Of a stretch of 4,664 nt of DNA, positions 1-4,664 are shown piece by piece; the first letter of the stretch is position 1, and every line of letters starts with the position of its first letter. The position numbers and the translations under genes were made by a program. The notes under the pieces are model-generated. The model did no database searches. It had not been told where the DNA came from and saw only the letters and a program-made list of their open reading frames with translations. Source of the DNA: a virus (lineage: Duplodnaviria > Heunggongvirae > Uroviricota > Caudoviricetes); the IMG/VR virus record IMGVR_UViG_2537562173_000009; one strand, given 5' to 3'.

Positions 1-209
1 GGGCTGTGGCTGATTAAAACGGAGCTGCTGGAAACGCAGACCGTGGACTTCAGCGTGGGTGCAGAAGGGCTTCGCCATGTACCGGGCGATGTCATTGAAA
101 TCTGTGATGATGACTATGCGGGGATCAGCATCGGCGGGCGCGTGCTGGCGGTGAACAGCAAAAATGCGGGCGGTGAACAACCAGACGCGGACACTGACGC
201 TCGACCGTG
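1..209 (+). CDS. J: gpJ-like fragment A (frame 1, 5'-partial). Homology ends near 163; the tail '[15 protein letters not shown]' is out-of-frame read-through.
   Basis: Frame 1 is open from base 1 and reads 'GLWLIKTELLETQTVDFSVGAEGLRHVPGDVIEICDDDYAGISIGGRVLAVNSK', then nonsense to the TGA at 207-209. Confidence 0.6.
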
Positions 210-907
210 AAATCACGCTGCCATCCTCCGGCACCACGCTGATAAGCCTGGCTGACGGACAGGGGAATCCGGTCAGCGTGGAGGTCCAGTCCGTCACCGA
301 CGGCGTGAAGGTAAAAGTGAGCCGTGTTCCTGACGGCGTTGCAGAATACAGCGTGTGGGGGCTGAAGTTGCCAACGTTGCGCCAGCGCCTGTTCCGCTGT
401 GTGAGTATCCGTGAGAACGATGACGGCACGTATGCCATCACTGCCGTGCAGCATGTACCGGAAAAAGAGGCCATCGTGGATAACGGGGCGCACTTTGACG
501 GCGACCAGAGCGGCACGGTGAATGGTGTCACGCCGCCAGCGGTGCAGCACCTGACTGCCGAAGTCACCGCAGACAGCGGGGAATATCAGGTGCTGGCGCG
601 CTGGGACACGCCGAAGGTGGTGAAGGGGGTGAGCTTTATGCTTCGCCTGACCGTGGCAGCGGATGACGGCAGTGAGCGGCTGGTCAGCACGGCCCGGACG
701 ACGGAAACCACATACCGCTTCAGGCAACTGGCGCTGGGGAACTACAGGCTGACAGTCCGGGCGGTAAATGCGTGGGGGCAGCAGGGCGATCCGGCATCGG
801 TATCGTTCCGGATTGCCGCACCGGCAGCGCCGTCGCAGATTGAGCTGACACCGGGGTATTTTCAGATAACCGCCACGCCGTGTGGAGGCTGTTGGCCAGC
901 CGAGTGA
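164..907 (+). CDS. J: gpJ-like fragment B (frame 2). J-like sequence starts at about 170; the ATG at 164 is probably fortuitous.
   Basis: This is the 247-aa ORF from the track. From '[21 protein letters not shown]' to '[13 protein letters not shown]' it is collinear with the middle of lambda J. The last 8 codons ('CGGCWPAE*') are out-of-frame relative to the continuing J sequence. Confidence 0.6.
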
Positions 908-1964
908 TGATGCATCCGGCTATCTGAATTTTTTCAAAGGAGAGATAGGGAAAACCCATCTGGCTCAGGAGTTGTGGACGCAGATTGATAACGGTCAGCT
1001 TGCGACTGACCTGGCTGAAATCAGGACGTCAATTACGGGTGTCAGCAATGAAATCACGCAGACCGTCAATAAGAAACTGGAAGACCAGAGTGCAGCGATC
1101 CAGCAGATACAGAAGGTTCAGGTTGATACAAATAATAACCTGAACAGCATGTGGGCTGTGAAGCTGCAGCAGATGCAGGACGGACGCCTTTATATCGCGG
1201 GTATTGGTGCCGGTGTTGAGAATACTCCTGACGGTATGCAGAGTCAGGTGCTGCTGGCGGCGGACAGGATTGCGATGATTAATCCTGCGAATGGCAACAC
1301 AAAGCCGATGTTTGTTGGGCAGGGCGATCAGATATTCATGAACGAAGTGTTCCTGAAATATCTGACGGCTCCCACCATTACCAGCGGTGGCAATCCCCCA
1401 ACGTTTTCACTGACACCTGATGGTCGACTTTCTGCGAAAAATGCGGATATCAGCGGTAACGTGAACGCGAACTCCGGGACGCTCAACAACGTCACGATTA
1501 ATCAGAACTGTCGGATTCTGGGAAAACTGTCAGCTAACCAGATTGAAGGTGATATTGTCAAAACGGTGGGAAAAGCCTTTCCGAGAAATGGCAGTTATGC
1601 CAGCGGTACAATAACGGTCACTGTGTACGATGACCAGGCTTTTGACCGTCAGATAGTAGTCCCCCCCGTTCTGTTTCGTGGGGGTAAGCATGAAAACTTC
1701 AACAGCAACAACCAACAGTCATACTGGTATTCAACCTGTAAGCTGCAGGTACTGAAGAACGGACAGGAAATCTTTCAGCAACCCGCGACGGATGTCAGCA
1801 GGGTATTTTCATCAGTCATTGATATGCCTGCCGGACACGGCCATGTCACCCTGACTTTCAATGTTTCTTCATATGGTGCTAATAACTGGACGCCAACGAC
1901 CAGTATCAGCGACCTTCTTGTTGTTGTGATGAAGAAATCTACAGCCGGTATCAGTATCAGTTGA
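882..1964 (+). CDS. J: gpJ-like fragment C (frame 3), the C-terminal receptor-recognition part of J.
   Basis: This is the 360-aa ORF (GTG at 882). It contains conserved J motifs ('MWAVK', '[31 protein letters not shown]', '[46 protein letters not shown]', 'FDRQIVV', '[15 protein letters not shown]', 'AGISIS*'). The stop is TGA at 1962-1964. The last ~150 aa diverge from lambda J. Confidence 0.65.
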
Positions 1965-1983
1965 ATTTTATAACCCAGATACG

Positions 1984-2010
1984 GGCGCCAGAAATGGCGC
2001 CTTTTTTATT
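1984..2010 (+). terminator. Rho-independent terminator downstream of J.
   Basis: There is a perfect 7-bp stem, GGCGCCA (1984-1990) pairing with TGGCGCC (1995-2001), around a GAAA tetraloop (1991-1994). It is followed immediately by TTTTTTATT (2002-2010). Confidence 0.7.
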
Positions 2011-2022
2011 TGTGGAGTGAAT

Positions 2023-4083
2023 ATGGCAGTACAGATTTCAGGCGTGCTGAAAGACGGTGCAGGAAAACCGATACAGAACTGCACCATTCAGCTCAAAGCA
2101 AAACGTAACAGCACCACGGTTGTGGTGAACACGGTGGCCTCAGAAAATCCGGATGAAGCCGGACGTTACAGCATGGATGTCGAGTATGGCCAGTACAGCG
2201 TTATCCTGCTGGTTGAAGGTTTTCCGCCTTCACATGCCGGGGCCATCACCGTGTATGAGGATTCTAAGCCGGGGACATTGAATGATTTTCTGGGCGCTGC
2301 AACAGAAGATGATGTTCGTCCGGAGGCACTGTATCGTTTTGAAAAGATGGTGGAAGAGGTGGCACGCAACGCTGAAGCCGCCTCTCAGAGCGCAGCGGCA
2401 GCAAAGAAATCAGAAACAGCAGCGGCATCGTCCAGGAATGCGGCGAAAACATCAGAGACGAATGCAGGTAACAGCGCGAAAGCGGCAGCTTCTTCAAAAA
2501 CAGCCGCACAAAACGCAGCAACAGCGGCAGAACGTTCAGAGACAAATGCCCGTGCGTCAGAAGAAGCCTCCGCAGACAGTGAAGAGGCTTCCCGCCGTAA
2601 TGCAGAGTCAGCCGCTGAAAATGCCGGAGTCGCCACCACAAAAGCGCGGGAGGCCGCAGCAGACGCAACAAAGGCCGGGCAGAAAAAGGATGAGGCTCTG
2701 TCGGCAGCGACACGGGCTGAAAAGGCGGCAGACCGCGCAGAAGTCGCAGCGGAAGTGACTGCAGAGCCCTATGCGAATATAGTGCCGCCGCTGCCTGATG
2801 TGTGGATACCGTTTAACGATTCACTGGATATGATTGCGGGTTTTTCTCCGGGCTATAAAAAAATAGCTATTGGTGACGATGTGGTTCAGGTCGCCAGTGA
2901 TAAACAGGTTAATTTCAGTCGCGCATCAACGGCAACATATATCAACAAATCTGGCGAACTGAAAACGGCGGAAATTAATGAGCCGCGATTTGAGTGTGAT
3001 GGCCTGCTTATTGAGGGACAAAGAACGAACTACATGCTCAATTCGGAAAGTCCAGCCAGCTGGGGGAAGTCATCAAACATGGATGTGCCCGAAACCGGGA
3101 CAGATAGTTTTGGTTTTACTTATGGAAAGTTTGTCTGCAACGATTCTCTGGTTGGGCAAACTTCGGCTATTAATATGGCATCAATTGCTGCAACAAAGTC
3201 AGTTGATGTCTCAGGCGATAACAAGTACGTGACAACCTCATGCCGTTTTAAAACAGAACGACAGGTAAGGTTACGTATACGGTTTGATAAGTATGATGGT
3301 AGTGCAACAACTTTTCTTGGCGATGCGTACATTGATACGCAAACGCTTGAAATTAATATGACAGGTGGGGCTGCCGGCAGAATTACGGCACGAGTCAGGA
3401 AGGATAAGACCACAGGCTGGATTTTTGCAGAGGCAACGATTCAGGCAATTGATGGTGAGTTAAAAATAGGCTCTCAGATACAGTATTCTCCTGAGCGGGG
3501 TGGGGCAACAGTATCTGGTGACTATATTTATCTTGCCACCCCACAAGTAGAGAATGGGCCGTGTGTATCATCATTTATTATTTCAGGAGGCAGCGCAACG
3601 ACAAGAGCCAGTGATTTGGTTAGTATCCCCACCAGAAATAATCTTTATAAGTTACCATTTACTTTTTTACTTGAGATTCATAAAAACTGGGATATTGCAC
3701 CAAACGCCGCACCCCGCGTGTGGGATATAGCAGCAGCCAATACCGGGCAATCAGCAATTGCAGCAATCAACAGAGGTAGTGGTAAGTTATATATGAGTCT
3801 GTCAAACCCTTCAGGCTTGTATGTTAATAGCGCAGCGACAGATGTATTTGCAGAGAAAACCACATTTGGATGTATTGCAAAAGCTGATGGTCACTTTCAT
3901 GTGGTGACAAATGGTAAAGCGGTTAATGAAGTTTATTGTGAATATAATGGTGTGACCGCTGATAAAAATATCCGATTTGGAGGGCAGACGAATACTGGAG
4001 AACGACATCTGTTTGGCCATATTCGCAATTTCCGCATATGGCATAAAGAATTAAATGACAGGCAATTAAAAGAGGTCGTATGA
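2023..4083 (+). CDS. stf: Side tail fibre protein (lambda Stf family N-terminus, Ala/Ser-rich shaft, divergent C-terminal receptor-binding domain).
   Basis: It is a long ORF, open from GTG at 2017. The ATG at 2023 is the preferred start: it is preceded by GGAG (2014-2017) with a 5-nt spacer and gives 'MAVQISGVLKDGAGKPIQNCTIQLKAKRNSTTVVVNTVASENPDEAGRYSMDVEYGQYSVILLVEGFPPSHAGAITVYEDSKPGTLNDFL', which is near-identical in pattern to the lambda Stf N-terminus as I recall it. The low-complexity Ala/Ser/Thr/Glu shaft is typical of side tail fibres. The stop is TGA at 4081-4083. Confidence 0.9.
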   Translation: MAVQISGVLKDGAGKPIQNCTIQLKAKRNSTTVVVNTVASENPDEAGRYSMDVEYGQYSVILLVEGFPPSHAGAITVYEDSKPGTLNDFLGAATEDDVRPEALYRFEKMVEEVARNAEAASQSAAAAKKSETAAASSRNAAKTSETNAGNSAKAAASSKTAAQNAATAAERSETNARASEEASADSEEASRRNAESAAENAGVATTKAREAAADATKAGQKKDEALSAATRAEKAADRAEVAAEVTAEPYANIVPPLPDVWIPFNDSLDMIAGFSPGYKKIAIGDDVVQVASDKQVNFSRASTATYINKSGELKTAEINEPRFECDGLLIEGQRTNYMLNSESPASWGKSSNMDVPETGTDSFGFTYGKFVCNDSLVGQTSAINMASIAATKSVDVSGDNKYVTTSCRFKTERQVRLRIRFDKYDGSATTFLGDAYIDTQTLEINMTGGAAGRITARVRKDKTTGWIFAEATIQAIDGELKIGSQIQYSPERGGATVSGDYIYLATPQVENGPCVSSFIISGGSATTRASDLVSIPTRNNLYKLPFTFLLEIHKNWDIAPNAAPRVWDIAAANTGQSAIAAINRGSGKLYMSLSNPSGLYVNSAATDVFAEKTTFGCIAKADGHFHVVTNGKAVNEVYCEYNGVTADKNIRFGGQTNTGERHLFGHIRNFRIWHKELNDRQLKEVV
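2365..2760 (+). repeat. Low-complexity Ala/Ser/Glu/Thr-rich repetitive coding segment (fibre shaft) inside stf.
   Basis: The translation is 'RNAEAASQSAAAAKKSETAAASSRNAAKTSETNAGNSAKAAASSKTAAQNAATAAERSETNARASEEASADSEEASRRNAESAAENAGVATTKAREAAADATKAGQKKDEALSAATRAEKAADRAEVAAEV'. Short motifs recur (SETNA twice, AA(K/E)(T/R)SETNA), and the DNA is rich in gcagc/gcggc repeats. This generates spurious ORFs on both strands. Confidence 0.8.
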
Positions 4084-4358
4084 AAGATTTAACTTTGAAG
4101 TTTCATGACAAACTGCAGTTTAAGGCCTTCCTGTCATCTCTTGACTGGGAGGAGGATGAAGACCTCCAGAATAAACTGTTAGTCGATGAAATTGGTTTCA
4201 CCTACACAGAAACAGGGGTAACAGAAGAGGGAGAACCTGTCTGTGTCCGGAATGACGGTTATTTTGTCAACATTCGCATTCTTGATGACTTGTTTGATGT
4301 TTCTGTATTCTCTGATTATGTCGTGGAGCTGGAAACACCGCTTCGGGAATGGAGCTGA
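4080..4358 (+). CDS. Hypothetical small acidic protein (92 aa), translationally coupled to stf. Possibly a fibre-tip accessory or assembly factor; it is not recognisably Tfa.
   Basis: Its ATG (4080-4082) overlaps the stf stop TGA (4081-4083) as ATGA. An SD-like AAAGAGG lies at 4069-4075. The ORF is very Asp/Glu-rich ('DWEEDEDLQNKLLVDEIGFTYTETGVTEEGEPV...') with no hydrophobic segment. It shares the low GC (~35-42% by hand count) of the stf 3' domain. Confidence 0.65.
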   Translation: MKDLTLKFHDKLQFKAFLSSLDWEEDEDLQNKLLVDEIGFTYTETGVTEEGEPVCVRNDGYFVNIRILDDLFDVSVFSDYVVELETPLREWS

Positions 4359-4370
4359 AAGGAGGAAATA

Positions 4371-4664
4371 ATGGATATAAGCCCCTTACTTCATGCGCTT
4401 TGTGCTGTGGCTGCGCAGATACTGGTTGGTCTTTTTACCGGAAACTGGGCTTACGGAGCGATAGCCGGTTGTACGTTCTTCATTGCGCGTGAACATACCC
4501 AGGCAGAATATCGCTGGATTGAAATGTTCGGGCATGGCAAGCGAATGAATATGCCGTGGTGGGGCGGTTTTGATCCGCGAGCTTGGGATGTGGCAAGCCT
4601 GATGGATTTTGCTGTGCCGGTGGTGGCGTGTCTGCTGGTCTGGCTGTTGGTTAATCGTGGGTGA
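4371..4664 (+). CDS. Hypothetical small membrane protein (97 aa, two predicted transmembrane helices). Candidate moron / accessory gene.
   Basis: There is a strong SD, AAAGGAGG (4358-4365), with a 5-nt spacer to the ATG at 4371. The stop is TGA at 4662-4664. Hydrophobic stretches are 'LLHALCAVAAQILVGLFTGNWAYGAIAGCTFFIA' and 'LMDFAVPVVACLLVWLLV', flanking a Trp-rich loop 'EHTQAEYRWIEMFGHGKRMNMPWWGGFDPRAWD'. GC returns to about 53-60%. Confidence 0.7.
   Translation: MDISPLLHALCAVAAQILVGLFTGNWAYGAIAGCTFFIAREHTQAEYRWIEMFGHGKRMNMPWWGGFDPRAWDVASLMDFAVPVVACLLVWLLVNRG

Follow-up and report, generated by a model that had tools for sequence, protein, structure and literature searches.

The stretch of DNA analyzed here, 4,664 nucleotides in length and referred to as the window, raises the question of whether the J gene of a lambdoid prophage has lost an internal block out of frame, or whether the two parts of the gene that meet at the apparent junction are naturally adjacent in this lineage. 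The first-pass annotation, made from the letters of the window, had favoured a loss. It placed two J peptide blocks next to each other in different frames, put a segment of roughly 65-70 residues between them in lambda J, and proposed a deletion whose length is not a multiple of three.

According to the six-frame ORF list and similarity searches, the window contains the 3' part of a lambdoid J gene, a terminator, a side tail fibre gene and two small ORFs. It starts at the first base of J codon 448 and ends short of sitD. J is represented by the 3' two thirds of the tip attachment or host specificity gene of a phage-21-like lambdoid prophage. The best matches were phage 21 (OL657228, here locus L002) and a prophage of many E. 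coli strains, among them ATCC 11775 (here locus L001), S88, IHE3034, ABU 83972 and Nissle 1917. The window is collinear with phage 21 and with the sitABCD-adjacent prophage of ATCC 11775, and in the records of both the intact J gene is a single ORF of 3,483 nt (1,160 aa).

Downstream of J an intrinsic terminator was found at 1983-2012 (plus strand), and the phage 21 record lists it as well. It is followed by an intact side tail fibre gene of 686 aa at 2023-4083 (plus strand; phage_tail_N, 230 bits) and by two small conserved ORFs of 92 and 97 aa at 4080-4358 and 4371-4664, respectively. Neither small ORF belongs to a Pfam family, and the second is a putative membrane protein in the phage 21 annotation. 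In L001 and L002 both are located between the side tail fibre gene and sitD. The position of J within the tail operon is as expected: the terminator and the side tail fibre gene lie downstream of it in the window, and the upstream genes K and I are seen in the collinear loci L001 and L002, since the window itself starts inside J. No family was detected in an Rfam scan of the window.

Some features of the side tail fibre gene may be mentioned here. After its N-terminal domain the product carries a long low-complexity stretch rich in Ala, Ser and Glu (window 2380-2760). The C-terminus (window 3700-4065) showed a weak match to Laminin_G_3, a concanavalin-A-like lectin/glucanase fold, with an E-value of 5e-5 that is below the Pfam cut-off. 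In RefSeq the side tail fibre gene of ATCC 11775 is annotated as a partial pseudogene (5201-5564, 'missing C-terminus') and the rest of L001 5201-7257 is unannotated. The DNA of L001 5201-7257 is identical to the intact 686-aa ORF of the window, and the phage 21 gene is annotated at the same position and with the same length. The pseudogene label appears to be a peculiarity of the annotation and does not look like a true defect of the gene.

Global alignment of the window to L001 and L002 revealed that exactly 200 nt are absent between window bases 880 and 881 (plus strand). The missing stretch corresponds to L001 3859-4058, that is J nt 2200-2399, and to positions 17704-17903 of the lambda genome; alignment to lambda returned the identical gap. 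To the left, window 1-146 (plus strand; J codons 448-496, native frame in window frame 1) matched L001 3001-3146 and window 169-880 (plus strand; J nt 1488-2199, codons 497-733, window frame 2) matched L001 3147-3858, both with 0 mismatches. To the right, window 881-1964 (plus strand) carries J nt 2400-3483 including the native stop, in frame 3 from base 882, and window 881-4664 as a whole matched L001 4059-7842 with 2 mismatches. Because the flanks are 100% identical to intact genes up to the breakpoints, the deletion is not a chance resemblance.

Lost are codons 734-799 and the first two bases of codon 800 (from H734 into F800), in total 66 codons and 2 nt encoding the block 'HLAVYDP...GKSAF'. 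Of the Phe-800 codon the third base survives as window base 881 (T). The first-pass annotation was borne out in its details: translation places the two peptide blocks at 842-880 in frame 2 and 882-941 in frame 3, the spacing it gave agrees with the number of codons found missing, the lambda sequences it gave for the ends of the missing segment are those of the lambda protein, and the length indeed shifts the native frame from 2 to 3 (200 mod 3 = 2). The alignment that it had suggested, across the junction to lambda and lambdoid J genes, gave a gap of exactly 200 nt in each. The deletion is of a round length and also begins at a round position, J nt 2200; this may be coincidence, and a designed or scripted deletion would also look like this.

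A second lesion lies 712 bp upstream of the deletion junction. This first break in the gene is an insertion of 22 nt after J nt 1487 (window 147-168, plus strand), consisting of GGCGGTGAACA followed by GCAAAAATGCG. The first half (GGCGGTGAACA) is a duplicate of the 11 nt that come next, and the alignment allows the insertion to be shifted rightwards by 11 nt. A search of the window and of 14 related loci yielded no template for the 11-nt filler GCAAAAATGCG, and the 22-nt insertion was not recovered from complete E. coli genomes, from IMG/VR or, by megablast, from plasmids. Downstream of the insertion, the native reading of J continues in window frame 2 instead of frame 1.

Consequently J is split into three ORFs over three frames, with stops at 208-210 and 905-907. 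Frame 1 runs on through the insertion and stops at the TGA 208-210 (ORF 43-210). The second piece, ORF 164-907, reaches the deletion in the native frame and ends after eight aberrant codons, reading CGGCWPAE before the TGA 905-907 (window 881-907, plus strand). The third piece, ORF 882-1964, comprises 360 aa from a GTG at 882 and is disconnected from any upstream reading frame. The two lesions do not compensate each other, since +22-200 = -178 is not a multiple of three, and the gene is not the single uninterrupted ORF of about 1,130-1,160 codons that characterizes J. Because the deletion breaks the frame, the shaft, the straight fibre and the receptor-binding parts have no upstream reading frame.

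To assess what is lost, the domain composition of intact J was determined with Pfam. It consists of Phage-tail_3 (residues 330-496), Ig_J (610-714; FNIII-1), Ig_J_second (PF24489; 716-818, 133 bits; FNIII-2), Phage_Tail_Tip (872-1000; tail tip fibre) and Ig_GpJ_C (1038-1160; C-terminal receptor-binding domain). Ig_J_second corresponds to FNIII-2 of gpJ in the cryo-EM description of the lambda tail, where FNIII-1 and FNIII-2 form a trimer that closes the tail tube at its end and an alpha-helical shaft anchors three FNIII-2 units from below (PMC11101478). The suspected fibronectin-III-like setting was correct: the deletion falls within PF24489 and removes about two thirds of FNIII-2, the core of Ig_J_second, with each breakpoint located 18 residues inside one end of the domain.

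In agreement with this, Pfam did not detect Ig_J_second in either of the window ORFs 164-907 and 882-1964. Ig_J is present in ORF 164-907 (147 bits; ORF residues 116-220, window 509-823), and it is followed by the first 18 residues of FNIII-2 at window 827-880. Of FNIII-2, ORF 882-1964 retains the last 18 residues; it further encodes the helical shaft, the fibre of the tail tip (Phage_Tail_Tip, 111 bits, residues 72-200) and the C-terminal receptor-binding domain (Ig_GpJ_C, 131 bits, residues 238-360). Even an in-frame loss of the block is expected to be damaging. As the frame is shifted as well, J can no longer be made with its fibre and receptor-binding domain.

Comparison with known J genes places these lesions in an otherwise almost unchanged sequence. 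The closest known genes are J of phage 21 (OL657228.1, CPT_21_21, UMO75436.1, 1,160 aa), the central tail fibre gene of that phage, and its prophage copy in ATCC 11775 (WP_000515327.1). Over all 4,642 aligned bases of the locus the window differs from phage 21 by 4 substitutions and from ATCC 11775 by 2. Both share the gene order of the window (J, terminator, side tail fibre gene, two small ORFs) and continue with sitD, whereas the window carries the 22-nt insertion after J nt 1487 and is without J nt 2200-2399. The intact reference J of L001 matched lambda J (PDB 8iyk_J) at 2157 bits. Lambda gpJ (NP_040600.1; PDB 8IYK, 8XCG, 8XCI) has the same domain order and is near-identical up to residue ~835, after which the C-terminal fibre and receptor-binding part of the window, being of the phage 21 type, diverges from it. 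FNIII-2 is intact in lambda gpJ, and the block is present in the lambda J of the solved structures (8IYK and others); in the window two thirds of the domain are gone and the frame is broken.

Whether the junction or a fused J exists elsewhere was analyzed with several searches. A fused query of 77 aa, in which the 38 residues left of the junction were joined in frame to the 39 residues on the right, was compared by tblastn with 50,697 phage records. It matched 252 of them, and 60 were sampled evenly down the ranking. Both halves were matched in 56 of the 60, and in all 56 the match extended over 432 or 423 nt, against 231 or 222 nt for the matched part of the query (the 423-nt spans being 74-residue matches). 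Each therefore holds an additional 201 nt, or 67 codons. Intact homologues with the two blocks adjacent, the finding that would have spoken against the first-pass annotation, were thus looked for, and all two-sided matches kept the block.

Furthermore, a 40-nt probe centred on the junction, designed so that a hit requires the junction to exist, was found in none of 5,426 complete E. coli genomes, and exact junction probes gave no match in species-representative genomes (GTDB), IMG/VR or JGI metagenomes. No other sequence with the junction, the insertion or the two single-base substitutions described below was present in any collection searched. At the protein level, a collection of 15 billion proteins contained no exact match to the ORF products of the window, 19 alternative starts included, or to a reconstructed N-terminal fragment of 516 aa, which is weak evidence because pseudogenes are often not translated in annotated genomes. 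Only C-terminal pieces of 271 and 263 aa, downstream of all lesions, have exact protein records. The specific J allele appears to be new, which is of no wider significance.

Besides the insertion and the deletion, two private C>A substitutions were found at 1005 (Pro>Thr) and 1031 (synonymous; both plus strand), 125 and 151 nt downstream of the deletion, respectively. Apart from these two bases the window shows no substitution relative to the ATCC 11775 prophage. Both were missing from the J copies in 3,563 complete genomes, where the best match to window 881-1100 reached 99.1%. All four private changes are located within 147-1031 (885 nt), and 1032-4664 is identical to ATCC 11775. Such a clustering of four changes arises in ~2% of uniform placements.

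Judged from the sequence, J of the window is very probably a pseudogene, produced by the 200-bp loss in FNIII-2 together with the 22-bp insertion in the course of recent, lineage-private prophage decay by illegitimate joining. The identity of the flanks with intact copies argues that the lesion is recent and restricted to this lineage. A prophage with this J would presumably be unable to build an infectious tail tip. Loss of prophage tail genes by deletion and frameshift is textbook knowledge, and the cryptic lambdoid prophages of E. coli K-12 (Rac, Qin, DLP12, e14) have lost structural functions in this way while cargo was kept. These K-12 prophages are heavily deleted remnants, however, whereas the window outside J is identical to a functional phage.

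With regard to the mechanism, the breakpoints show 0 nt of microhomology and nothing can slide in either direction. Additionally, no direct repeat with a spacing of 200 nt was found at 3859/4059 of L001. In the absence of microhomology and of a suitably spaced direct repeat, replication slippage between repeats is not supported. Homology-independent (illegitimate) joining of two ends would be the best remaining biological mechanism for the deletion, and the insertion, with its duplication and its untemplated filler, could reflect the same untidy repair. An imperfect inverted repeat of 12 nt (L001 3839-3850 and 4095-4106) flanks the region, but it is not situated at the breakpoints and was judged to be due to chance. 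Relocation of the deleted block within the window was rejected as well, as the block has just a single 12-mer, by chance, in common with the rest of it.

Alternatively, the deletion, the insertion and the substitutions could be the product of sequencing, assembly or consensus error, or of deliberate or accidental editing of the record. We regard this as unlikely, though a number of observations would suit it. The lesion is known from one assembly only, and nothing else in the public collections searched carries it. The crowding of the four private differences into 147-1031, next to a remainder that is 100% identical to many genomes, would be in line with a local fault, as would a deletion of exactly 200 nt (J nt 2200-2399), a junction without microhomology and an insertion that is half duplication and half untemplated filler. 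J is moreover repeated among several lambdoid prophages per genome and hard to assemble: E. coli genomes match the window at a median of 3 and at most 14 places, and in another assembly (L011) J is interrupted by scaffolding gaps of 10 N. On the other hand, a shortcut in a de Bruijn graph needs a shared k-mer at the breakpoints, and none is present. Long-read errors are typically short homopolymer indels and not clean losses of 200 nt within perfect flanks, which likewise counts against an artefact, and real lesions inactivating J are common in this prophage (see below).

The round length of 200 nt at J nt 2200, the zero microhomology and the four clustered private changes were also counted against gradual decay, since an artefact or one complex event fits them at least as well. 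The clustered lesions might form a single scar of error-prone break repair, reflect selection to disable the tail tip while sitABCD is kept, or leave a C-terminal fragment (882-1964) that has a use of its own; we consider these possibilities together to be very improbable.

Highly improbable, too, is a functional break, in which J would be made as separate polypeptides or by programmed recoding, for example with a C-terminal fibre and receptor-binding protein translated from the GTG at 882. Such a product is conceivable in so far as the 360 aa of ORF 882-1964 include intact Phage_Tail_Tip and receptor-binding domains. However, consensus scans found no Shine-Dalgarno sequence in the 15 nt before this GTG (TAACCGCCACGCCGT) and 0 promoter-like sites in window 1-2100. 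The arrangement is conserved nowhere among the complete E. coli genomes and the sampled phage matches, the exact ORF products are absent from the protein collection, and the hub domains by which J is fixed to the tail tip (PMC11101478) would be missing from the fragment.

A further idea is that this lineage has a J variant with only one FNIII domain, in which the blocks would be neighbours by nature and the frame change would be only apparent or a separate 1-nt error. It can draw on the remote J-like PDB proteins 9l9p_S and 23gd_D, whose match to J stops at about residue 700, which indicates variability behind FNIII-1 in distant relatives. However, the idea is effectively refuted and of negligible probability given that the breakpoints lie 18 residues inside each FNIII-2 end and not at domain borders, that the flanking DNA is identical to block-containing copies, that the 67 codons are kept in all 56 two-sided phage matches sampled, that none of the complete E. 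coli genomes has the junction, and that 200 and not 201 nt are missing.

The reading of J as a decayed pseudogene can also be set beside other strains that carry the same prophage. The 271-aa C-terminal piece was traced to contigs of other E. coli strains in which J is broken differently. In these draft assemblies J carries either a nonsense mutation, Q860* (L004) or W832* (L013), or the deletion of a single T, after J nt 2659 (L006, L007 and L012) or after J nt 2588 (L008). None of these lesions is located in a homopolymer run. As in the window, J is fragmented and its C-terminal part is stranded, where it forms a separate gene call of 271 aa. The events are point events, in contrast to the 200-nt deletion and the 22-nt insertion of the window, and no lesion is held in common. 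Decay of J at the sit-adjacent prophage is therefore recurrent and independent, and against this background the lesion of the window is biologically unremarkable.

Phage 21 is a functional phage that was isolated in the 1950s, and its J differs from that of the E. coli prophage at only 3 bases. In both phage 21 (L002 7934-8178) and L001 (7934-10842) the tail fibre region is followed directly by sitD and the sit genes downstream of it, and in related E. coli strains sitDCBA follows immediately downstream of the genes of the window. As the sit genes occur in both the phage and the prophage, sitABCD, an operon for an iron/manganese transporter, appears to be cargo carried by the phage. A literature search retrieved no paper linking 'phage 21' and sitABCD.

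For annotation, the label of J in the window should be one pseudogene instead of three genes, with the prophage regarded as tail-defective. Nothing new is learnt about FNIII-2 itself because the frame is broken as well, and the importance of the finding beyond annotation is small. The different J mutations across strains fit a domestication of this prophage in which the cargo is kept.
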